Shown in pieces: positions 12,763 through 36,381 of a stretch of DNA of 64,000 bases (its first letter is position 1; each line of letters starts with the position of its first letter). Under the pieces are notes generated by a model. It saw only the letters and a program-made list of their open reading frames with translations. It did not search any database and had not been told where the DNA came from. The stretch spans positions 124,001-188,000 of the forward strand of contig BAAIJX010000023.1 of assembly GCA_054600435.1 (NCBI GenBank), read 5' to 3'. Source of the stretch: Neophaeotheca triangularis. Lineage: Eukaryota. The position numbers and the translations under genes are program-made.

Positions 12763-14547
12763 TCACTGTCCACTTCCGGGACCCAAGAATCCAGCCCATC
12801 CCGAAACCCACGAGCTCTTCTGCAATCCTAAAGTGGACGTCCCACCAGCACCCGTCTTTTGCTCTCCGAATGGCGACTGAGGTCCGGGGCTCGTAGGCAA
12901 GGTAGCACCATAGTTATCAACCTCATCATCCATATCACTCGCGCTTTCACCATCCTTCCCATAGCCATTCATATTATCGATGTCAGCCACGAAAGGGGAG
13001 GTGGGATCGTTTACTCTCTCCCCCGGCGCTCCGTCTCCGGGCATCAAAACCCCCGGCACGTACTCATCAACCTGCATTTCCTGCTCGTGCGCACGGGGAC
13101 CGAACTTACAGTTCATCTTCCCGCCGCGGTACCTGCAGACCGCATTTTGACAAACATGCCCACTATAGCAGTTGAGATTGCGGCAGTCGCCTCTCGCCTT
13201 GCAAGGATTACCTTGCACGATCTGCAAGAGCCTATTGAACTCTCCCTCAGCCATTGGGTCGTGATCGAATTCGCAACTGCCGTTGCGACAAGTGCCGAGG
13301 ATATGATAAGTGTTGCAAAACTTCTTACGCTGCACGCGGTTGAAAAAACTGTTCTTCTCCGCAGCGGTTGGATTGCGGACGAAAGGATCCAGGCGATACC
13401 CTGCTTTGTTGACGGGTATCTGACCTCTTGGAATTTGCGACCGCTGCGGAAGCTCTGCGGTAAAGTCGATTTGGTTTTGCGTTTGCTCTTCCTGAGGGCC
13501 GAAGTTTGATTGTTGGTTGCGGAAGAAGGCGCTGGCTTCTTGTGATGTATATGGCGTTTGAAAGGGGTCGGCATTGGCTCGCCAGTCGGCTGCACTCGAA
13601 GGTTGAGTGTGGTCGATAGATGTGTGGTTGGATCGCACTTTGATGTGAGCGAATTTGCAGCCGTTGCCGTACTTGCACTGGCCTTTTTGGAAAAAGTTGC
13701 ATATGGGTTTGTTGTTTTCTTGAGGTTCGTTTTTGACTGGCGGGGCTTGTTGAGCGACCATGGGCTGCTTCGGTGCAAAGAATTTTTGCTGCGTATCGAG
13801 TGGAGCAGTTCTGAAAACTCCATGAAACTCCTCGATACGCAGTCCCAGGTTGTTGAATTGATGGTGGAAAGCGGGCGTTCGCACCAACGTAATCTTTTCG
13901 TGGTTGTCCCGGTATGGCGTGAGCTCAGCAACATAGCCCACATCGTGACAACCTGCGAAAAAGATGTGCTTGCAAGATGGGTTGTTGACGAATTGCCTGA
14001 ACATGGCACGGATTTTGAAGTCGGCGTTTTCCTTCAGATCGCCAGCGTCGACGAAATCGAATAAGTCGTTGGAGCGGGTGAAACTTGCTGCGAAAGGCGC
14101 GAGAGAACGCTTCTCCGGTCCGCAGAGTCCAGCTTTCGAGGCAGCTTTCGAAAGGCCGGCAAGGTTCGTATAAACACGGACCATGATACTGCAAGTCGAA
14201 TCAAGGCCTCGGTTGGCCAAGCTGTTCCGAACAGTACGGCTGAGAAGCTGACCGGCTGCCTGGCCGCCCTCTGTACCCTTGGAGATAAGACCGTCGTCGA
14301 AGACGTAACCATCGCCATCAATAAGTACAAGTACGAAGGAGGCCCGCTCAGAACCTCTAGCCATCTGCTTGTACTTTTCGCGGGCATCACGTTCCTCCTC
14401 GTAGTCGCTTTTCAGGCGCCTGAAATCTTCGATAAGCGTGTGGTAGTTTTGTAAGATATCGGAGAGCGATGTCTGCTGCTGTTTGGAGACATCTTCAAAA
14501 GTACGAAGCTGCCCGAGAGCATTGCTCAGCTCTCTTTCGTCCGGCAT
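12763..14547 (-). CDS. CCCH zinc-finger protein with N-terminal coiled coil and NYN/PIN-like (DUF7923-type) domain
   Basis: FVLVLIDGDG..FDFVDAG..KENADFKI..HIFFAGCHDVGY. CCCH fingers CNFFQKGQCKYGNGCKFAH and CNTYHILGTCRNGSCEFDH plus further Cys/His clusters. Intronless, ATG at 14547. Confidence 0.8.
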   Translation of the reverse strand: MPDERELSNALGQLRTFEDVSKQQQTSLSDILQNYHTLIEDFRRLKSDYEEERDAREKYKQMARGSERASFVLVLIDGDGYVFDDGLISKGTEGGQAAGQLLSRTVRNSLANRGLDSTCSIMVRVYTNLAGLSKAASKAGLCGPEKRSLAPFAASFTRSNDLFDFVDAGDLKENADFKIRAMFRQFVNNPSCKHIFFAGCHDVGYVAELTPYRDNHEKITLVRTPAFHHQFNNLGLRIEEFHGVFRTAPLDTQQKFFAPKQPMVAQQAPPVKNEPQENNKPICNFFQKGQCKYGNGCKFAHIKVRSNHTSIDHTQPSSAADWRANADPFQTPYTSQEASAFFRNQQSNFGPQEEQTQNQIDFTAELPQRSQIPRGQIPVNKAGYRLDPFVRNPTAAEKNSFFNRVQRKKFCNTYHILGTCRNGSCEFDHDPMAEGEFNRLLQIVQGNPCKARGDCRNLNCYSGHVCQNAVCRYRGGKMNCKFGPRAHEQEMQVDEYVPGVLMPGDGAPGERVNDPTSPFVADIDNMNGYGKDGESASDMDDEVDNYGATLPTSPGPQSPFGEQKTGAGGTSTLGLQKSSWVSGWAGFLGPGSGQ

Positions 14548-15079
14548 GATAGTGAAGTTATATCGAGTCAAGATGTCTTTGTCCGTCGCGGATACTTATT
14601 GCCGCGCTGCTACTGCGCATTAATAAAATGAGGCGGAGTCCAAGTCCAGAAGCTGAAGACAAAGGCTGGGCGACCGTAAGCGCAGAGCAAAGGCTAGACT
14701 AGACATGCGCCGTCTGCCAATTGCTTGCTACGGAAACGGGCGTCTCTGACTTGAGTACTGTATGTCAGAGAAAGTGCAATGGAAGATTCGATCCAAGCGT
14801 GCCTAAGATGGCAGTAGATGCAGGTGGGAGAGTGGACGACGGCGGCTAATATAAGCCGGGCGTGTGAATTCTAACTTCGGCCCAACGCGCAATCACGTGG
14901 GACAGCGCGTTGCTTGGCACATACTAGAGCTTTCAGAGCACGTGGACCAGTAGCAATTGTCCGCGTGAGATTCATATCGATAGCAGTGGCGTGACTTGGG
15001 TATTCAAGAAGTTTGCTACAAGAAGAGCTACAAGAAGACCTTTGACTTTGGCGAGGTCTGGACGCCAATTCTCGGAAAG

Positions 15080-19713: not shown

Positions 19714-20444
19714 CTTTAATAATCGGGGTTTATGATCGGGAAACGTAAGGAAGAGACAAGAGGCTTGATACTAGACGTAGCTTGTCTCGTCGGGGATGTC
19801 GTATGCTTTTATGCTTGACCACTTGTTTGTAATACTTTACCTCCGGATACAGCGGATGACAAACCTTAGAAAGATACGGAAGAAGAGGTGACGTCGCTCT
19901 ACATACTGCGTAACGCTTCCAAGGTTCTCAGGTCTGTAAGCCTCTACGACAATAGAGACCTGTGAGTGAACCTTAAGGTAAGATTGGTAAGTCTAGATGC
20001 ATTATTTATGCTTTGTTTATGGAAATTTATGCCAATGCTCGAATGAAGCGTTAAGTTGCGTGACATGAACTCTACTTTGTCTGTAAGCTTAATTATGCAG
20101 GGAAATATCTTCAGTATGCACACCCGCACTGATGCCACAACAGCGCTGTCCTTGGGATGCTTAACCAGAATGCTCGAGGGTGTAACATCTCGTTTGTGTC
20201 GACGGACGACATTAGAGCTCCCTCATACGGTGGATGTCAGCACGCAGCGATCGAACAAGACTTTCAAAGACAAGCGAGATTATCGATTACCTACGTAGAT
20301 GAGGTGAGGTCGGAAAAAGACAAACAAGGTTCCCGGCTAGCGCGTTCGGCAGACCTTCCAACTCTACCAAGTTTAAACCTCTGGAAGCTCTTTTTTCAGA
20401 CAACCTTTGGCTGAAAACATACTATACGACTTGACAAAATCAAC

Positions 20445-22386
20445 ATGAAGCGCAAACTGAACGAACACGACGTCCCGGAGGCGACATCCACTGGAGTTGG
20501 AAAAGCATCTCCCGCAAAGCCTGCCTTCGCCGCCCTCAACCTCGATTCCCGCATCCTCAAAGCCATTTCTCGAGAAAAATTGCCATCCCCGACGCCGGTA
20601 CAAGCCAAAGCCATTCCTCTAGCACTGGAAGGCAAGGATGTTCTAGGTAAGCTTCTCTGGCGATCGCAGTTGATGTTTCCGCTAACACAAAGAAGCTCGA
20701 GCAAAAACCGGCTCCGGAAAGACCCTCGCATACCTTTTGCCCATCCTACACTCGATTCTCAGCAACAAGACCTCGGCGAAGGTGCGCAAACAAACGACTG
20801 CGCTCATATTAGTCCCCACGAAAGAGCTCGCTACTCAGGTCACATCCACTACCAAGACGTTCTCTTCCTTTTGCGCCGAAAGCATTCGGGTCGAGAATGT
20901 CACCCGCAAAGAGGATGCTGCCGTCACCCGCGCAAGACTTGCAGAAAATCCGGACATCGTAGTCGCCACACCCGCCAGGGCAAGTCAGTGGTCAAATGAC
21001 CAGGCTCTGAGCCTTGAGAGTCTCAAATGGATTGTTATCGACGAGGCAGATTTAGTACTGAGCTATGGGTATCAGGAAGATCTTGAAAGCATCGCTGCAG
21101 CACTTCCCAAGGGCGTACAGACCATGATGATGAGCGCTACGCTGCGCACGGAGGTGGACAAGCTCACCAAGCTTTTCTGCAAGGACAAAGAGCCTGAGAT
21201 TCTGGATTTGAGTGCGGAGGAAGCCGGCGAGAAGAACGTACTCAAGCAGTACATTGTGAAGACGGCGGAACAAGAGAAGTTTCTGCTAATCTATGCCATC
21301 TTCAAACTTCAACTGGTCAAGGGCAAGGTCATCGTGTTTGTGGCAGATGTGGACAGGTGTTACAGGGTCAAGCTCTTTCTGGAACAATTTGGCATTCGGA
21401 GTTGCGTGTTGAACAGCGAGCTGCCGGTCAACAGCAGGCTGCATGCCGTGGAAGAGTTTAATCGTGGCGTTTACGACATCATCATCGCGGCTGATGAGAA
21501 TGAGGTTATTGGGGAGGAGGATGGGAGTAGTAAGAAGAGGAAGGTTGAAGAAGAGGAAGCGGACGACGGTGAACCTCAGGCAGTCGAAGAGTCTAGCAAA
21601 GGTGGCAGGAACACGTCTGGCAACGGTGAGGAACAAGGAAGCAAAGGGAAGAGTTCCAAGGATCAGAAGCGCAAAGCCCCGCAGCAAGATCGAGAGTTTG
21701 GCATTTCTCGGGGTATCGACTTCCGGAACGTCGCTTGCGTACTCAACTTCGACCTCCCGGCTACTTCGAAGTCTTACACTCACCGCATCGGTCGTACTGC
21801 TCGCGCCGGACAAACTGGTATGGCTCTGTCGTTTGTCGTCCCGAAAGAACTCTATCGAAAGCATAAACCAACCTCCATTCCGCAATGTGAGAACGACGAG
21901 AAGGTGCTGGAGAAGGTGCGGCAAAAGCAGGAGAAGACAGGCGCGGAGCTTGAAGAGTGGCAGTTCGACATGTCCAAGTTGGAAGGCTTCCGCTACCGAA
22001 TGGCAGACGCATTGCGCAGTGTCACTCGTATCGCAATCCGCGAGGCTCGCACGAGAGAGTTGAGGCAGGAGCTCATAAAATCCGAGAAGCTGAAGAGGCA
22101 TTTCGAGGAGAACCCCGAGGAGCTCCGGCATTTGCGACATGACACGGAGTCGCATGCTGTACGGCAGTTTCCCCACTTGAAGCACGTGCCGGACTACCTT
22201 CTACCTACGGGAGGTCGGGCGGCTGTTAGCGCTGAAGTTGGGACTGTGGGTCTGAGAAAGGAGAGCGAGAATAGGATAAGAAAAGCAAGGTCCTTCAACA
22301 AGGGCAGGGGTAAGGGAAGCCTGGCGAAGGGCAAAGGTCTTGATCCGCTGAGAAGTTTGAATGTCAAAGGGAGAGGAAAGAAATAG
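20445..22386 (+). CDS. DBP9: ATP-dependent DEAD-box RNA helicase Dbp9 (60S biogenesis)
   Basis: [21 protein letters not shown], intron 20647-20695, [55 protein letters not shown]. Confidence 0.95.
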
Positions 22387-22832
22387 GGGTGTATGGATGG
22401 CAGAGAGATAACGGTAATGTCAAATTCGAATCCACCCCAGGTGGCCAACACCAAGGAAACTCCTTTCGAACAGGCCTCTTTCAGCACTACGTATCGAACA
22501 TCTACACCCTCAATTTTTCTTTCTGGAGCTTACGTTGCATCTCTTCTCTTTGCTCCTGGTTTCACACGGCGTTTGCTACAACCACATCAGAGCCTTTCAC
22601 CATGTCAAAGGGGCCAATGCGTCAAGCCTTCTCTTTCTTGCATCTTCCTCATCGTCATCAGATGGGGAGCTGAAGATTGATCCACAAAAGGGGCAGTTCC
22701 CGCCACTGCATCAAACTTCTCCTTTCCTCTACAGCATCCGCAGCTTGGTCATAAGTTGCCTCTGCTTTCTCAAACTTCGCATTTCCTCTTCTTTTCACCT
22801 TTACCGATCCGCCGTTAGTGAAACAACCCATC

Positions 22833-25800
22833 ATGAGCGGCAGCAGCAAGCCGTCCCCTCAGGTGGTCCGGCGATCTTCGCAAGTATTTGCAAACCAAGA
22901 CCACTTGCCGATTCGCGAGTCCCCTCGCTCGGATTCCAGGACACCTCGGAGGGGCCAATCAGGAGACAACGTCAAAGAGCTTTTACGGAGCGCCAACATC
23001 CAGGACAACATCGACGGTGTTGCGAACACTCTCACCGAGAGCCCCATTCAAGCCCGGAAAAATGCAGCACGTCCCATGTTTCGTAGCACCTCGAGAGCTG
23101 GTCCTGAAACCCCGTCGCCCATGAGCAACCTAGCCACACACACGCAACTGCCACCGTCTGAGGACGCGCGCCGAGCTCGGTCTCGTCAACCAAGCAGCGA
23201 TGTTGCAGGGATTGGACCGGGTCTTTCGACGAACATCAGCTCAAGCCAACCTGGAGCCCAAAGCAGCAATTCGACGTCTCCGGTCGAATCGAACCCGCAA
23301 AGTTCTGCTGGGTCGTATCGAACCGCTTCTGAATGTTGCGGAACGATTCCCCCGCCTGCGTTCCTTCAAACGACTGGATCTGAGTCGCTGCAAAACACAG
23401 AATTGCACTTTTACAAGGTCACGAGCGCGCACATGATGCCTGGTCAGGACAACGGCGGCCAATCAACCTCGAAAAAGCTGAGTCGTTTCATCCATCGACA
23501 CGGCCTCAAGTACTTATTCGAGAATGCCGAGAAGCTTTCGCACGTCCATAGCGACTACTTTCTATCACCGGTCAAGCTGGCACACAAGCAGCGTCCTATT
23601 AGGATGCGCAAGGTGCCTGCTAACGTCTCAAGAAACGTCAGCACCACTGGAGGTCAAGCCCCACAGGCTCGTGTTGGTGACGACAAGTGGAGCTTGATCG
23701 TGGTCGATGCGTCAAGTCCCGCGGTATCAACATGCGACCTTTCGGTCAACGTGGAAGAGATCGAGAAGGACAGCCTTTTCGAGCTGGCGCGTGTGCGCTC
23801 CTTTTTCCCCAAGGACGACCTCAAGGAGACTGAGCACCACGAGCAGCAATCTCGGTCCAACTTGGACGCGGTCATCGCTTCTCTGCTTCGCCTGCAGTTC
23901 GAGAAAGCTGAAATTGTCGACGTTGCAAAGACATTCAGCCATGGCAACCGTGTCTTTTCCCACATGCACTCAGAGCTCATCCCAAATCTCGCTCTGAAGA
24001 AACACGGCTTGGAGGGCAGGATCGTCTACGACGACTGCGGCCTGAGCCCGTCACTCGCCTGGAAGCCTTGCGTCGCCAACTTCATCCCTGAGGCTCTGGT
24101 CTCAGACTTCCTCATCGCCGTGGCTGGGCCTTGCATGTCCGAAGCAAAGTACCTAACCGACGCTCGCATGAACCGCTTGACAAAGATGTTGAAAGGCAAA
24201 CGGGTTGCGGTTGCTCTTGCGTCTGGGTGCGAAAAGCAGACATACTCCATCATCGGCTTCTGTCAAAGTGCTCAAGATGACCCGTCAGCACTGTACCTCA
24301 CCAACAAGAGGGTCACTTTGAGCAGCATGCGGTACCCGGACATGGCATGCTTGAGGGCTGTCCGCACAGGCCCGGGGTTCAGCAAGCAGCCCGTGACTCT
24401 GCCCGCCGAGCTTTGCAAAATACTTCCTGGACAGTCCCTCCGTTTTGAGCCACCACTCCAAGCCTCCGACATCTCGGTACCGCGTCCAGGGCGAGCAGTC
24501 ACAGAGTATGTGCCCAAGGATGGCGATCCCTTCGAAGGCATCAGGCCCGACACTTTTACGCTCCTCTTCGCTCGTGTGGTGGATGAAAACTCGCCGGTCA
24601 GCTCCGATGACGAGTTGTCCGCGAAATCATGGGACAATTTCAAGACAGAAATCGGCAAACGTTTCAACGGCAAGCTTCGTGAAGCTGTCGATCGTTTCAA
24701 CGACGAGATGTACCGCAATGATGATAGTGAGGAAGTTGACGACACCGTCATCAAACGCAAAGTCAATGACCAAAAAGGCTCCTGGGCAGACATGTGGCAG
24801 AACCATTTTGAAGATCTTTGGCACTCCATCGAGCAGCGCAGCGGCAAAGATACCGTCCTGATTGTCGCGATACCTCCTAGTTTGGCAAAGACCGAGGTGA
24901 ACCAGATGAAAGCCTTCTGCGACGTCAAACTCGGCATTCAGGCTTGCTTCGTCAACACCAGGGAGCTTTCCAAACGCTACGAACCGCGTGCCAGGCGCGA
25001 TCAGAGCCCGATGGTCAAATACACAGGCGCCGTCGTTCGACTTTTCTTTTCTCGAGCACTTGCCCCAGCAATCGATGGGGACGCGACTTCAAGCGCCACG
25101 AACGACCCTCCAGAAGATTATGGAAAGCTGGTCGTCGGTCTGCAAGTCACCAGGATGAAAAGCTTCTTTGCCGGACGTGGGACGGATTCCAAACCTACGG
25201 TGAGTGGAGATGATGGTGAGAGGTTCCTCGTGACTATTGTCGCTTTCGATGGCACCGAGCGCCGCCTGACGTCCACCTTCAAAATGCCCGTTGGCAATCT
25301 CACCGACCTTCCACGCCTTCTTGCAGAGAAAATCAACGAGACAGTGGACTTGTCCAGTTACAAGCAGACAGTAATCCATTTTGTTGGTCACGATGCCTTC
25401 GATCTCGGCTTCTTCGATCCGTTCTTGAATCTACTCGATCGTTTACGTCTACAACATCCCCTCGCCACAAACACATCCGAGCAAGTGCAGATCGTCGCAT
25501 ACTCCGCCGAATCGAAACTCTCGAGCATGGGAGCGAGCGAGACGCCCCACTCGACGATACCCTTGGAGTGCATCTCCCAGGTCGACAACCCTTCTGATGC
25601 TTTGCCTGCACCGGTGCACGGAGCCGCCAAGAACAGCGTCTTCGGCGACCGCGAGCTCCGCTCCCACATCACCAACGTCACAAATCTCGACTCTGCTCTT
25701 CGCGCGGTTTTCGTCCACCCTGGCGGCAACTCCCAGTCGCTGAAACAGGACCCGTACCGCGTCTCCTACCACCACAGCATGACGGCTCAGAACGCCACGC

Positions 25801-26009
25801 AGAAGTTCCGCTACACCTTCGCGCCGAACCAGCAAGCGCACATTCACTACCGCCAGCTCGAACGCCGCGCCCTGCCACCAATCGTCTTCCTGGTGCAAAA
25901 AGCGACCAAGCGCGCCCTCACCCGCATGGACACCTCCACCGATGGCACCCAGCCGCTCGAAGTCCCCGAAACCCACGTTGCGCTGCAGCACAGCCTCTAC
26001 TTTTTGTAG
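22833..26009 (+). CDS. Highly divergent Argonaute-like protein (PAZ-MID-PIWI remnants, catalytic residues absent)
   Basis: Ago landmarks in correct order: LTKMLKGKRV, RYPDMACL, PVTLPAELCKILPGQ (PAZ end), VLIVAIP..MKAFCDVKLGIQACFV (MID), LVVGLQVT (cf. VVGxDVTH), LPPIVFLVQKATKRA (cf. PPAYYAxLAxxRA), HVALQHSLYFL* (cf. HxxLxxTMFYI). Confidence 0.75.
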   Translation: MSGSSKPSPQVVRRSSQVFANQDHLPIRESPRSDSRTPRRGQSGDNVKELLRSANIQDNIDGVANTLTESPIQARKNAARPMFRSTSRAGPETPSPMSNLATHTQLPPSEDARRARSRQPSSDVAGIGPGLSTNISSSQPGAQSSNSTSPVESNPQSSAGSYRTASECCGTIPPPAFLQTTGSESLQNTELHFYKVTSAHMMPGQDNGGQSTSKKLSRFIHRHGLKYLFENAEKLSHVHSDYFLSPVKLAHKQRPIRMRKVPANVSRNVSTTGGQAPQARVGDDKWSLIVVDASSPAVSTCDLSVNVEEIEKDSLFELARVRSFFPKDDLKETEHHEQQSRSNLDAVIASLLRLQFEKAEIVDVAKTFSHGNRVFSHMHSELIPNLALKKHGLEGRIVYDDCGLSPSLAWKPCVANFIPEALVSDFLIAVAGPCMSEAKYLTDARMNRLTKMLKGKRVAVALASGCEKQTYSIIGFCQSAQDDPSALYLTNKRVTLSSMRYPDMACLRAVRTGPGFSKQPVTLPAELCKILPGQSLRFEPPLQASDISVPRPGRAVTEYVPKDGDPFEGIRPDTFTLLFARVVDENSPVSSDDELSAKSWDNFKTEIGKRFNGKLREAVDRFNDEMYRNDDSEEVDDTVIKRKVNDQKGSWADMWQNHFEDLWHSIEQRSGKDTVLIVAIPPSLAKTEVNQMKAFCDVKLGIQACFVNTRELSKRYEPRARRDQSPMVKYTGAVVRLFFSRALAPAIDGDATSSATNDPPEDYGKLVVGLQVTRMKSFFAGRGTDSKPTVSGDDGERFLVTIVAFDGTERRLTSTFKMPVGNLTDLPRLLAEKINETVDLSSYKQTVIHFVGHDAFDLGFFDPFLNLLDRLRLQHPLATNTSEQVQIVAYSAESKLSSMGASETPHSTIPLECISQVDNPSDALPAPVHGAAKNSVFGDRELRSHITNVTNLDSALRAVFVHPGGNSQSLKQDPYRVSYHHSMTAQNATQKFRYTFAPNQQAHIHYRQLERRALPPIVFLVQKATKRALTRMDTSTDGTQPLEVPETHVALQHSLYFL

Positions 26010-26404
26010 AGGCCGACGACTTTCCCTTGCTCTTTTTCGCGTCGCTTGCTTGGTTGTCTTCACTTCACAACACCCCACACTCGCTTTTCCTCACATTTCC
26101 AAAAGTCCTCTCCTGAGAGGGGCGGGCCCGTCACTGGACCTTGTCATGTCCTGCCACTGCGGACCTCTGGCATTTTTGTGCTGCGTTCTTGAATTTGGTG
26201 CTGTGTTTGGGAGAATGCGGGTATTTGCGGTACTGGACTTTGGATGATGTGGATTAGCTCACTTGAAACTTTTGCTCTCACCTTTGTCTCACGGTCTTCA
26301 CGGGTTAACGGTAAATCTCGGTGTTGAGGTAGTTGGTTGTAATCATCACCTCCCATATCCATTGCATATCCTACAAGAAAGGCAGTCACGGATCTGGTCT
26401 AGCC

Positions 26405-27148
26405 CTACGACTTCTGGTGCCTGCCATCGTCGCCATTGGAGTATGGGCCTCCGCTCTCTTTGACCAAACCTTGCTGCTCGTTGTGGTCCTTGCTCTGTTG
26501 GCTCCACTCCGGCGCCTCATCCTTTCCATTCTCTTCCTCCTCATCACCCTCATCCTTGGTTTTATGCTCTGTCTGAGTATCGTGCTCGGCAGGGCTGTAG
26601 ATAGTAACCACCTCGAGCGGCTGCGTCTTGGACGTGTTGATGAACTGATGCTGAGTACCGGCTGGCACAACGACGACGTCCGAGGCTTTGACGTCCTGCG
26701 AATGATTAGCAGAACGCTCTACCAAATCCGGGTCGATGAGTCTGCATACCTGGTCCTTCCCAGCCACCGTTGCCTTGCCCTCTCCAGATGTGAAGATCAA
26801 TACTTGGTCGACCATGTGAACTTCGTCCCCAATGTCTCCACCCACGGGAATCTCCATGGAGACCAACTGCGAGAAAAGACCAGTGTGCATGACTGACATT
26901 GTGAGCTATCGTTAACATCCAAGAGGCGCTTTGGTCCTACCTTTGCGGAACTGCCCAAAAGCTCTCACATCAGACGTGAGCTTCGGGAAATACACCATCT
27001 CGTGCTTCGGCGGGTCTGTCGGCATCTTAGAGTCTTTGCCCATGGTTGCTATGGTAGTTGAGAACGCTCTGAGCGGCAGTACTGCAGGTGGTGGTTTGGT
27101 CTTGGAAGCTTTGGTGACGATGCGAGAGATGGTGCGAGCAGAGAACAT
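26405..27148 (-). CDS. Cupin (RmlC-like / mannose-6-phosphate isomerase-like) protein with possible mitochondrial presequence
   Basis: Introns 26893-26940 and 26696-26749 give FRKVMHTGLFSQLVSMEIPVGGDIGDEVH..DQ..VVVVPAGTQHQFIN..TIYSPAEH. The N-terminus is Arg/Ser/Thr-rich and acid-free. Confidence 0.85.
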
Positions 27149-27553
27149 TGGAGGATGTGTGTGGTGTGCTATACTTGCCCTGAGTGGGTGCGTCGCTCTC
27201 GCATATATGGTGACTACGGTGATCCAAAGCGTAGAGTTGCTTAGGGTCCCATTCCATTACAGCAATGGATGCGCCATAGAGCTCATGACGTGATGGTAGC
27301 GCCGTCGAGATCGAGAGCTCGACGAAGCTCATCAAGCCGAAGTTGTGCTCGAGCCGAGAGCCCCGCACGGTTGATTGAGGACATCACCCTCTCCTCCATC
27401 AAGAGCCCAACACCAGGAAACCCGTCAAGCCATTGTGAGCAGGCCGTTAACAATTACCTAGCTGCTGGTCGCCATTTGATACGAAACAGAGGTTTCCATT
27501 ACTTCAGACGAAGTTCAGCACCCACCGCAGTGTCGTAAGAGCGACAGGGAGCC

Positions 27554-30984: not shown

Positions 30985-32207
30985 GACAATAGCGTCTTAG
31001 GCTACGTGTGGCGGAGGTACATTAGTACCGCAAGGGTAGTGCTTCATACTGATCATGTGATGTACAACACAATATACAAACCCACGCTTGATGCGCGGGC
31101 GAAAACAGCACTTCCTATTTCCTCTGTCTTCGGTAAGCATTATTGTTTATCGTTACCTGCAGGCTGACCTACCTCTCAACATGGTTAGACTCGGCTACAA
31201 CGTAAAGCCTCGGTGTATTTTAGATGTCAGCTCACGCAAGCCGGTTTCAGCTGCAAAGTACAAGTTGGGAAGTGCTTTTGCAGGCAGTCTTTTACCGAAG
31301 GGACCCAAAAACAAATACCGGCGCTACTTGTTTGAGATAGGTCGGACTTCCGTGCTGGCTGGCTGGTCTGCACGATTCGACTTTGCATTGAGTCGTCTCC
31401 ATTTCTCCTTCAACTTTGTCAAGGTCGTCCCTCAAAATCGACAACACATCTTCACGTGCAGCGCCGAGAGCCTTGTTGTCAGACTACCTTGACTACCACA
31501 CCCTCAGAGACGCAGTTTTGGCATTCTGAGGTTGTGGTTCCGGACCGTCTTTCCTGGAGATCCCAGGACCGGTGAAAAAGTGTTCGAATCATCACCACGG
31601 CTGACTCGGGATATAGCGAGAAACACTCAGATGCAACCCAGAGCTCAGGACAACAGGAGCTCCTGGTGGTCACCTGCCGCTGGTTATGTCGCGATTCAAG
31701 CATGTGAAAGGTACTTCCATCGCAGCTCAGCGCCGAACCAGCTTCAGCGGACACATGATTGGAGAGTTTGGCGCGCCGTTTGCTCATTGCAGCCCAAAGA
31801 CTCGCAGTTGGCATGAACCTGCAGCACTCCGGCTCAAGTTCAAGGGGTATCTACGCTCATACTGAACGTTGCATGTTCGTCCGTCAGAAGAGGGGACAAT
31901 GCGGCTCTGTGAGACTGTAAATGTGACGAAAAGAGGTATAAAGATCAGCACCGAGTGGCCATCGCTGACACGGCCGTTGTCTTCTTCGAATAGTCGAGGA
32001 GCTTATCACGCAGCGTAACCCCCATATCCAGTTGTCTTTCGCCTTCGCGCTGGTCCCCCTTGAGCTGTCTTATTCGTTGCCCCGATCAAGGCAGTTCCAC
32101 TTCACCGTCCAATCGGGCCGTCCTGTTCTACCAAGCATCCCGACGACCGTCAAGCCGTGTTGCCTTCTGTTTTAGGGTTGCCGGGTACCTTGCATTCAGT
32201 CCTCGAC

Positions 32208-33914
32208 ATGAGCGTATCACAGCCCCGTACCTTTTGGGACGGTAGACGAAATCAATACTACTACTACGACAGCAACCGCGATGAGTTAGTGTATCAAGAT
32301 GGCACTCGGTTTAGGAGGCCGGATAGTGTGCCACGCACGACTTTGATGGCCCAGGCAACATCGCAAGTTCCGAGTGCGCCATCACAGCAAGGTCACAATC
32401 CCGATTACGAGCCGAACTATGTGCCAGGCCAAAGGAACACGAGTGCTCGCGCACAAGCGCAGAGTGCAGCCCCGAGACAACCACCAACCGACCAAATGAG
32501 CGGATTGGCAATCTCCACCGCAACCAACAGGCAATCTGGAGATCAACGAGATAATTTCAGAGGTCATCAGCCGACTGCAACAACCACTCGACAAGCGCAA
32601 GGTGAATCACAACAGGGTGCAAACCAGACGGTACGCAGAGGGGCTCCAGATCGATCTCCCCCCACAAATACGTATCAGGCTGTACCCGGTGGACAACATG
32701 CAAGACCGCAGCCTTCAGTTAATCAAGGACCGCCACGACAGGGAAGCCAAACGCAGCCCCAAGGCTCCGGGGATGTGAACTTCACGGACTCTCGCAACGG
32801 CGTTAGTGTGTCAATCAAAACCGGGTCCCCGCAAGACATCACCGACGCAGCGTTATATCGCGAGGGTGGAAGAGCCCAGCGCATGTTAGTCGGAACCGCT
32901 GGCGACGCGGAACAACTCTTCCCCGAATTCAAAAAGAAGCCACAACCAAGAAACTTCTTCAAGTTCGGCAAAGTCTTTTACACACTGTGGGCAGAGCCGG
33001 CTGGCGAGACGACGACCGCAATCTCCATGCTGGAGCCCGGTATTTTGCCTGGCCGATACGAAGGCGAAAAGATCTTCTCCAAGGTTCGGCGCTTCGTAGT
33101 CATCCGCGAAGGAGAGACCTACTGCAGTGCAATCCCCATCACCACGTATGGTTCTCGAGGTGTCGGCAAGTCTGGTGTCAACAAATCCGAGCATGTTGTG
33201 ATTTATACCGGAAAACAAGCACCTGAACCAGGCAGGGACGAATCTGGGATGCGCAAACCGTCAATTCGTGTCGATCCAGACCACCGAGACGGGAAATTAG
33301 ATCGATTGTCGAGGCTCAACCTCGCGCAGGTGTTCACGGTTCAGGTAAGCTGCAAACATTACATCGACTGCTAGTGCAGCCCCCGGACCACTGACATGTC
33401 GAAGCATAACCTGAAGGTCAAGAGCTTCGGCAAAGTACATGAGGCTTCACAGAAGCCTTTAAGAGAGCTGACTCTAGCTGTCTGGAGAGGTGATGCTTTT
33501 CCCAACTGCTCTAACAGCAACGATGACGATTCGGATAGTGACGACCAAGCCGACGACCAAGCCGGGTCTGTGCGGAAGGCTACAGCACAACCAAGTTCGA
33601 AAGAAGCAGTGCAGAAATCAGCACAAGCAATTCGCGCGCAAGCTGCCAATAGTACCTCATTAAAGAGAAAAGCTCCATCCCGCGAGGCTCGGGCTTCCCA
33701 AGGACAAGAAGATACCATCGCCGCCCTCCAGAGACAAAAAGGATTTACAAAAGAGCAGGCGTTACAGGCTTTGCTCAGGAGAAACCAACTGGCAGAGCAG
33801 AGCTCCAATGCGATGGCTGGTCCTTCCCGGGCGTATCAGGGCTCAGGGGCCCGAAAGCAAGACGAACAGGACGATGACGAAAGCGAAGAGGACAGCGAAG
33901 ACGAAAGCGACTGA
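32208..33914 (+). CDS. DUF6590-type domain protein, paralog A
   Basis: FFKFGKVFYTLWAEPAG..KVRRFVVIREG..CSAIPITTYGSRGVGK..EHVVIYTG..LDRLSRLNLAQVFTVQ, intron 33345-33404, HNLKVKSFGKV. Aromatic N-terminal motif, Gln-rich linker, acidic tail. Confidence 0.85.
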
Positions 33915-34726: not shown

Positions 34727-36381
34727 ATGTCGGGGCAAAATTCCATCGGGGAGCCCACGCGATACAGGGACACTGTCACTGGAAAAGAAGTTTGGTGGTC
34801 GCGGAGTAAACACTCCTACGTGACGGCCGCTCGAGAACGTGTCAAACGGTCGAATGTGCAACAACGGCCTCAGACGCCTTCGACACAGCAGACGGAACCG
34901 GAGACCTCTCAAGAAGAGACAGACGATGAGTACGCCAAACTGCTATCAAAGATCGACACAACCGCAATGGTCTTGGTCTGGCTAACAAACCACTAGAGTG
35001 GATTCTTCCGATGGTCCCGCTCACAAGCTGGAGCAAACAACTTCCAGGGAGACGACGAATTCTCGCGGTACATCGCACTCGGCAAACCCCAGGGAAGCTC
35101 TCACTTCAGCGAATTTGCGGAGATTTAGCTCCATTAGCAGGACCGTGGAAACGACTGGTAGCCATGTAACAAACGCAAGCGGTATGTTGCTCGCTCTGCG
35201 CTCAAATGATGATGCTTTCTATTAAACATGTCAGTCAGGCTTCAAAATATCTACTAAGCCAGAAATCGACTTCAAACCGGGAACGGTAGGTCTTCTCCCA
35301 CCAAAAAATGCGAGCCTCTGGCTGAACATTCCAGGTGATTGCGATTCCAAGACCGAACAGCGAGAATGCAAGCGTCGCTGCTTTCTCTGCGGCCAGCCGT
35401 GGAGGTACCCAGCAAGTCCTGAAAATGAGGCTCGTGGTCTTGAGGACAGATGATCAAGGAACTGCAGAGTTCACTGCATTGTAAGCATGCGACCTTCACG
35501 CATACGTCGCAATTGCTGACAAGTTTCTCAGGTGTATTTCCACTTACAACGGCCAAGGCGTGGGTCTCCATGGAGTGGTAAAAGCCGATCATGTCGTGAT
35601 CTACACTGGAACAAGCGAACCTGATATCCTTCATTCGGAGCGACCACGAAGACTGCAGAACGGATCTATTGAAGGTGCCCTGCGAGAGCCTAGCATACAT
35701 GTACGACAACATCGGCCTGACGTGAAGCTTGACACACTCTCCCGTCTTGACCTCAGATCGGTCTATCGCATGAAGCATTCGACACCTTTCGCTACCATTG
35801 GATATGTGGAAGGAGACTCCCTAGCGGCACTCGTCAATTATCGATGGCAGGTTTCTCAACCACCGCAACTTCCGGCTAAGAACCAACCTCCACCGACGCC
35901 TCCATCCAGATACCGTCAAACTGCGCCCGAAACTTATGGCGTCGGTCAAGCTAGTAGCTCATCAGGGAGGCATCCACCGCATGCTAGTGGCCGCAGACCC
36001 GACGATGAAATTGCGCCAGTGATCGCGGCCTACGAAAGCGCTCGTAGATCGCAGCACGAGTCCATCAATGCTGCTGTACAAAGCTCGTCAAGCCGTGTCC
36101 GCAATGATGCACCAATGGGCGGAAGGTCCGGTTTGACCAACTTCGCCACCGAGCTCGCCACTCTCGTATCGGAGGCACAGCGGCTCAGCGTCAGAGGCCC
36201 GGAGCTAACTCGAGATGAACAAAGAAGACTCGCGGGTGACCGAACAGCTTGGGCTAGTTATGTGCGCAACCTGAAGCGGAACTGGGGAACGGAGCTAGCT
36301 AGTAGGCGAAACAACGAAGAGCAATCGGATGACGAAGAGTCGAGCCAAGGAAGCACGGAGGAGTCTTCGGACAGCGACTAG
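34727..36381 (+). CDS. DUF6590-type domain protein, paralog B (5 exons)
   Basis: Introns 34930-34996, 35182-35238, 35286-35334, 35481-35531 give a continuous ORF: DFKPGTVI..MRLVVLR..FTALCISTYNGQGVG..DHVVIYTG..LDTLSRLDLRSVY..IGYV, with acidic tail. Confidence 0.8.

Follow-up and report, generated by a model that had tools for sequence, protein, structure and literature searches.

A Probable Slicer-Dead Argonaute-Fold Protein with a Drifted PIWI Domain in Neophaeotheca triangularis

Introduction

In canonical Argonautes, PIWI is the best-conserved domain, and the 5′-phosphate pocket of human AGO2 (hAGO2) comprises a Tyr, a Lys, a Gln, two Lys residues, and the C-terminal carboxylate. Human AGO1 and AGO4 work through guide binding and partner recruitment rather than cutting, and they keep a PIWI sequence highly similar to that of their active paralogs as well as the canonical 5′ and 3′ end pockets. 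Med13 and the prokaryotic pPIWI_RE proteins are not known to carry either PAZ or the eukaryotic N-L1-PAZ-L2 lobe. Here, we describe P0001, an Argonaute-fold protein encoded by an ATG-to-stop open reading frame (ORF) of 1058 codons plus stop at 22833..26009 (+) of a 64,000-nucleotide (nt) stretch of Neophaeotheca triangularis DNA (the window; contig BAAIJX010000023.1, positions 124,001 to 188,000). We conclude that P0001 is probably a retained, slicer-dead, full-length Argonaute-fold protein, in which PIWI persists as a drifting structural core and PAZ and MID are kept.

Results

The frame that encodes P0001 extends over 1084 amino acids (aa) from stop to stop and is the longest overlapping 14-36 kb (the runner-up has 610 aa); it is therefore no chance ORF. 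AlphaFold gave an unusable model from the single sequence, with a predicted local distance difference test score (pLDDT) of 34.5, and a model of aa 181-1058 with a pLDDT of 72.1 and a predicted template modeling (TM) score of 0.70 when supplied with a 26-row family alignment. A Foldseek search of the latter against the Protein Data Bank (PDB) returned 232 matches at E <= 0.001; among the best 50, ranks 1-49 are Argonaute or PIWI structures by title, and rank 50 has an uninformative title. The top match is hAGO1 (4kxt; E 9.5e-21, 867 columns, TM 0.45/0.48), and yeast KpAGO is also among the matches. The modest TM scores and high root-mean-square deviation would fit lobes that are differently placed relative to each other. 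These matches therefore point to a full eukaryotic Argonaute architecture; indeed, the model is bilobed, with the order N-L1-PAZ-L2-MID-PIWI, and its PIWI RNase H-like fold packs on MID. An original prediction, made from the DNA sequence alone, had named the protein an Argonaute and proposed structure prediction as the check for a PAZ/PIWI fold, which was found. The same fold evidence rules out the possibility that P0001 is not an Argonaute at all.

The PIWI-like RNase H-fold domain spans aa 761-1058 (25113..26006, +) and ends in the tail LYFL. To locate its former slicer positions, we placed the two Asp columns by the flanking conserved Gly, Val, and Gly residues together with the ends of predicted strands β1 and β4, whereas the His column of the family was fixed by profile alignment to hAGO4. 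All residue counts per column given here refer to the 26-row family alignment. The first Asp (of G-x-D-V) corresponds to Q771 (25143-25145), where the family has H17 N3 Q2 K1 D1; the second Asp (of R-D-G) corresponds to V851 (25383-25385), with S18 T2 R2 V1 H1 in the family; and the His (of Y-Y-A-H) corresponds to Q1022 (25896-25898; all on the + strand), with Q13 E3 A2 G2 R1 D1. The flanking residues are conserved, G769 in 23/24, V772 in 22/24, and G852 in 24/24 members. In the model, Q771 lies within β1 and V851 at the end of β4, which we take to be the seats of the two catalytic Asp residues in the RNase H fold. The catalytic mapping thus combines motif context with predicted topology, rather than residue-level superposition, and is consistent with the predicted replacement of GxDV, RDG, and YYAH by GLQV, FVG, and FLVQ.

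With Q771, V851, and Q1022, P0001 lacks the catalytic Asp-Glu-Asp-His/Asp tetrad, and no conserved acidic residue was seen in the Glu-finger segment of the family alignment. The residues that replace the catalytic ones are themselves conserved across most of the family (His in 17/24, Ser in 18/24), but not in P0001. Likewise, the family carries a TTHH motif after strand β3, in the columns of aa 814-818, where P0001 reads TSTFK.

The PAZ domain spans aa 421-545 (24093..24467, +), as delimited by Pfam PAZ and by the family profile against AGO10, and closes with the PAZ-L2 signature LPAELCKILPGQ. The junction is among the best-kept parts of the family, with P524, E526, and C528 present in 23/23 members and Q534 in 24/24. 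A helix segment of PAZ, which aligns to VAQYFKQKYNL of hAGO1, is present in 9/9 aligned clade B members (one with a 3-residue gap), whereas all 12/12 full-length members of clade A, P0001 included, carry a 9-12-residue deletion of it (the clades are described below).

The MID domain, delimited by profiles against the MID domains of AGO10, hAGO1, and AtAGO1, spans aa 671-760 (24843..25112, +) and comprises a VLIVAIP strand, the motifs VNQMK (K693) and CDVKLGIQ (Q703), and the helix KYTGAVVRLFFSRA (R736, R741). The K693 column holds K12 R10 H1; G701 and Q703 are each present in 24/24 members, and C696 in 21/23. The K693 and Q703 columns align to the Y-x-x-x-K...Q-C motif of AGO10 and hAGO1, with which a clade B-weighted profile aligns the family pattern I-Y-x-x-L-K...G-V-Q-C; the same profile matches the isolated Arabidopsis AGO1 MID domain (E 8.9e-5). 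In the helix, the column of R736 is Arg in 20/24 members and that of R741 holds R23 K1; these two residues are presumably positioned as the two pocket Lys residues of hAGO2. Every complete family member ends in L-Y-[FY]-[LIV]. At the MID stacking position, the nine aligned clade B members have Tyr (four) or His (five), and the position is deleted in 14/14 clade A members that cover MID. The 5′-phosphate pocket had been described as eroded; the loss of the Tyr holds, whereas simple erosion does not agree with the conservation of K693, G701, Q703, R736, R741, and the C-terminal tail. As read from the alignment, the pocket is modified rather than simply eroded.

Across nine pairs of relatives, pairwise identity is 0.44-0.69 in MID and 0.45-0.61 in PAZ, as against 0.33-0.49 in PIWI, which is rich in indels. 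This ranking, with PAZ and MID above PIWI, differs from the canonical pattern.

The divergence of PIWI is also apparent in sequence searches. In Pfam, PAZ matched aa 449-538 of P0001 below threshold (16.6 bits, with the cutoff at 28.8; E 0.0079) and Piwi (PF02171) did not match even at E 10; a single-sequence phmmer search of PDB chains found nothing relevant. A 23-member family profile matched the PAZ of AGO10 at E 7.2e-16 and those of hAGO1-4 at 1e-8 to 1e-10, followed by weak collinear pieces in MID (family CDTxxGVQC against CETELGLisQC of AGO10) and at the C terminus (family PdILyLaqkAskra...LYF against PAPAYYARLVAFRA...MYF of hAGO4). Among the relatives scanned singly, 12/30 (7/22 and 5/8) pass the Pfam PAZ cutoff; PAZ is thus recognizable by sequence through the family profile, with P0001 alone below threshold. 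None of the 30 passes the Pfam Piwi cutoff, a gathering score that is a criterion of detection and not of structure; nine show sub-threshold matches, which extend no further than position ∼170 of the 302-position model. A MID-PIWI-only profile (13 sequences) run against PDB found the AtAGO1 MID motif alone (E 0.0081) and no PIWI. Because neither Pfam Piwi nor this profile finds it, the PIWI half lies beyond sequence recognition.

P0001 does not stand alone: of the proteins known in its family, which has at least 35 relatives in two clades, it is the most divergent. An exhaustive HMMER search of 1.84 billion representatives yielded the query and 25 other proteins at E <= 0.001; 22 of the 26 fall at <= 1e-10, with identities of 25-50%. 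A word-indexed search of 5.8 billion proteins, with P0001 and the family alignment as queries, returned the query alone, a result probably swamped by low-complexity words. Language-model features for P0001 led to Piwi/Argonaute clusters (score 0.92, 180/256 features in common) and, once Piwi clusters were set aside, to pPIWI_RE clusters as the best (score 0.84); we treat both as leads.

A quick maximum-likelihood tree of 31 full-length members resolved the two clades with an SH-like approximate likelihood ratio test (SH-aLRT) support of 100 each: clade B (19 rows) and clade A (12 rows), in which P0001 is sister to the remaining members. The named rows of clade B are from Elasticomyces elasticus and Friedmanniomyces species and are labeled ‘hypothetical protein’ or ‘PAZ domain-containing protein’, two having automatically received the name argonaute; the family members that carry names, all in clade B, are from Dothideomycete fungi. 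In a leave-one-out comparison with family-conserved columns, P0001 is typical in PAZ (18/23), L2 (12/13), and MID (14/17), and lies at the low end in N-L1 (10/16). One relative is unusual in its domain content: P0031 (1503 aa, Friedmanniomyces endolithicus) has an N-terminal CID domain (PF04818, E 1.6e-32, aa 7-123), which interacts with the C-terminal domain (CTD) of RNA polymerase II (Pol II), and its PAZ (aa 882-978) follows ∼750 residues later. A true fusion would hint at a co-transcriptional role, but two gene models may instead have been merged; P0032-P0034 and P0036, from the same species, are 917-1016 aa long, too short for the extra ∼490 N-terminal residues.

Retention of the gene, which had been predicted, is borne out by a second isolate with the same species label (X2), which holds 47% of the sampled words and whose contigs cover the gene. 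The isolates are about 2% apart, and the 1058-codon frame is intact in both. Within the ORF, X2 has a single listed indel, an in-frame deletion of 3 bases at 24700, whereas frame-breaking indels of 5 bases at 22804 and of 1 base at 26038 lie just outside it. Synonymous and nonsynonymous counts cover 40/239 differences, up to 24275 (codons 1-481), where 17 differences (11 synonymous and 6 nonsynonymous) give a ratio of nonsynonymous to synonymous differences per site (pN/pS) of 0.17 (binomial test against the neutral site ratio, p 3.7e-4). Within the ordered region (codons 181-481), 8 synonymous and 3 nonsynonymous differences occur (pN/pS 0.11, p 6e-4), and the N-terminal extension (aa 1-180) has 3 of each (pN/pS about 0.34); for comparison, the neighboring DEAD-box helicase has 13 synonymous and 1 nonsynonymous (pN/pS 0.02). 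Purifying selection is thus shown for the N-terminal half of the gene, codons 1-481. A further run, X3, aligned to the neighboring helicase gene only and is uninformative on the presence or absence of the P0001 gene. The X2 contigs over 20400-27400 are short (43 pieces), and some sites show two variants, each at about half depth (for example 21756 and 21765, 54/118), which suggests two haplotypes or a mixed sample.

The ORF and motif coordinates of the original prediction all proved exact on re-reading the sequence. LPAELCKILPGQ comprises aa 523-534 (nt 24399), VVGLQVT begins at aa 767 (nt 25131), VNQMK..CDVKLGIQ spans aa 689-703, HFVG spans aa 849-852, FLVQ spans aa 1019-1022, and the C terminus reads LYFL; moreover, in the family alignment these motifs occupy the columns that had been assumed for them, and profile-to-PDB comparisons match those columns to Argonaute MID and C-terminal motifs. 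At the N terminus, an extension rich in Ser, Pro, Gln, and Arg (aa 1-180; 22833..23372, +; boundary approximate) is probably disordered, as had been proposed, which fits its lack of predicted structure in the low-confidence model and of any alignment to relatives. It is followed by the N domain and L1 linker (aa 181-420; 23373..24092, +; boundaries approximate), with a loop of low per-residue pLDDT at about aa 254-335, and the alignment of hAGO2 (4w5t) spans model residues 1-878.

The L2 linker, placed by profile, alignment, and model at aa 546-670 (24468..24842, +), had been thought shortened, and at the family level it is short relative to AGO10: 95 profile positions separate the PAZ and MID blocks, against 142 residues in AGO10. 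Near its end, at about aa 620-650, P0001 has an acidic insertion that the alignment shows to be lineage-specific within the family. Inside this insertion, we read a weak candidate for an in-frame intron of 63 nt, stop-free and of the form GTGAGG...CAG (24727..24789, +), because of which the claim that the gene is intronless is unproven, though the ORF is continuous. Removing 24727-24789 leaves a pre-MID linker of 33 residues, about the length of that in P0003.

The P0001 gene lies between a DEAD-box helicase gene upstream (20686-22386, +) and a cupin gene downstream (26405-26905, -). About 8 kb upstream, a 610-aa stop-to-stop ORF (12763-14595, -) encodes a putative RNA-binding protein with a DUF7923 domain (E 9.5e-60) and, after it, several CCCH zinc fingers; an NmrA-like gene and a weak pectate-lyase-like ORF lie further off. 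Two DUF6590 ORFs are found at 32064-33374 (+, E 4.3e-41) and 35485-36381 (+, E 1.9e-16). A functional link to these DUF6590 genes had been raised as speculation, and nothing supports it: the 6 kb in between holds the cupin gene and the weak pectate-lyase-like ORF, which are unrelated. Nor did the gene context of the window reveal a tie between any neighboring gene and the P0001 gene.

Discussion

Our analyses describe a protein that is probably unable to slice, because the positions of its two catalytic Asp residues and of its His are Gln, Val, and Gln. The PIWI domain of the family has drifted past sequence recognition, apparently to serve mainly as a structural core, and PAZ and MID, the nucleic-acid end-binding modules, are the most constrained parts. 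P0001 may anchor a 5′-phosphorylated nucleic-acid end in its MID-PIWI pocket, through the conserved Lys, Gln, and Arg residues and the C-terminal carboxylate, and may act without cleavage, either by occupying targets or by recruiting partners through its disordered N terminus. The conservation pattern points to such anchoring and non-cleaving action, to which we give slightly less than an even chance because clade A has lost the canonical contacts to both guide ends. The better conservation of PAZ and MID than of PIWI points to selection for end binding, or for the structure of these modules, without catalysis.

Several observations weigh against this reading. Searches by sequence, including that with the MID-PIWI profile, matched the PIWI half to no solved Argonaute, and the catalytic mapping therefore rests on motif context and predicted topology. 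P0001 matches 17/25 of the conserved PIWI columns, a low value within the family range of 0.41-0.91, lacks the family-conserved His at the first Asp position, the Ser at the second, and the TTHH motif near the former active site, and has the longest terminal branch in the tree (1.91 changes per column; median, 0.61). In its PIWI half, the density of differences from X2 is 25/1121 and 17/686 (2.2-2.5%), no lower than that of the downstream intergenic DNA, at 6/270 (2.2%). Further, the absence of the PAZ helix and of the MID Tyr/His from clade A argues against canonical guide binding; any guide binding would therefore be non-canonical.

These same losses are what one would expect of an ex-Argonaute scaffold or decoy that binds no nucleic acid and makes protein contacts only, sequestering partners, loading factors, or viral suppressors. 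This main alternative is the reading of the original prediction, which had proposed a scaffold, a decoy for viral silencing suppressors, or an inhibitor of RNA interference. The deletion of the PAZ helix in 12/12 and of the MID Tyr/His position in 14/14 clade A members, the further erosion of P0001 around the former active site, and a long N-terminal extension that fits disorder would all suit such a role. However, the most conserved columns of the family are the PAZ-L2 junction, the Lys, Gln, and Arg residues of the MID pocket, and the C-terminal tail, and MID and PAZ are the best-conserved domains, as selection for end binding would give, even if a structural role could also explain this; on balance, we regard a pure scaffold or decoy as somewhat unlikely. 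Should P0001 instead be a decaying, lineage-specific relic, functionless and drifting under relaxed constraint toward a pseudogene, the longest branch of the family, the few family-conserved PIWI and N-L1 columns matched, and a PIWI-half difference density as high as that of nearby intergenic DNA would be readily understood. Such decay is nevertheless very unlikely, except perhaps in the PIWI half, given that two isolates keep the 1058-codon frame whole, with an in-frame indel alone listed inside it and frame-breaking ones just outside; that codons 1-481 show a pN/pS of 0.17 (p 3.7e-4); and that PAZ, L2, and MID match the conserved columns as those of other members do (18/23, 12/13, and 14/17).

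The conservation of the replacing residues in the family (His in 17/24, Ser in 18/24, Gln in 13/22, and the TTHH motif) could also be taken for a new active site, making the protein a nuclease or another enzyme. P0001 has Gln, Val, Gln, and TSTFK at these places, and therefore no such site; moreover, we know of no precedent, and this explanation strikes us as extremely improbable. We thus prefer the retained, slicer-dead Argonaute-fold protein with its end-binding modules kept. A broader proposal would extend this to an undescribed fungal family of repurposed ex-Argonautes, their nuclease domain freed from constraint and PAZ and MID kept, possibly working co-transcriptionally in the nucleus, in a pathway other than quelling or meiotic silencing, with clade A, devoid of canonical guide-end contacts, using a new ligand or a guide-independent mode. 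We consider this distinctly unlikely; the only hint of a nuclear co-transcriptional role is the CID domain of P0031, which would link the family to the transcribing polymerase unless it stems from a merged gene model.

The funRNA report defines a fungal Argonaute by the presence of both PAZ and Piwi InterPro domains (PMC4290597), and surveys of fungal RNA silencing that apply this requirement would therefore miss the whole P0001 family. The RNA interference (RNAi) gene inventories of fungi that carry the family may thus be incomplete. The family also shows how far an Argonaute can diverge with its fold kept. Should its members bind small RNAs, ascomycetes would have a non-slicing effector branch; should they bind none, the family would be a clear case of the Argonaute fold put to another use. 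In the full-text literature, paywalled work being outside its scope, our search found no description of a PIWI-degenerate Argonaute-like family in ascomycetes.

Among known systems, close counterparts of P0001 include the clade B entries from Elasticomyces elasticus and Friedmanniomyces, recorded as ‘PAZ domain-containing protein’, ‘hypothetical protein’, ‘Protein argonaute-2’, or ‘argonaute 5’; these belong to the same family (P0015, P0018, P0020, and P0022 match P0001 at E 1e-13 to 1e-19) and likewise have three of the four catalytic columns substituted. Unlike P0001, which sits in the more derived clade A, they keep the PAZ helix and the MID Tyr/His and show sub-threshold Pfam Piwi matches. 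The Neurospora crassa QDE-2 protein and other fungal AGO-clade Argonautes (MID-PIWI structure 2yha) share about 11% identity with P0001 in a structural alignment, and P0001 differs from QDE-2 in having no Pfam Piwi match, substituted slicer positions, a shorter L2, and a ∼180-aa disordered extension; clade A as a whole further differs in the absence of the MID Tyr and the deletion of the PAZ helix. Med13 and the prokaryotic pPIWI_RE proteins are likewise PIWI folds far removed from canonical Argonautes, whereas P0001 has the whole eukaryotic Argonaute architecture. In this it resembles human AGO1 and AGO4, which also combine a full Argonaute fold with the lack of an intact tetrad, and hAGO1 (4kxt) is its best Foldseek match; in contrast to these proteins, the PIWI domain of P0001 is undetectable by sequence and both of its end pockets are altered. 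Inactive Argonautes are common, and P0001 is of a known kind in this respect; what sets this case apart is how far PIWI has diverged, that three catalytic positions are replaced throughout the family, and that clade A has lost the PAZ helix and the MID Tyr.

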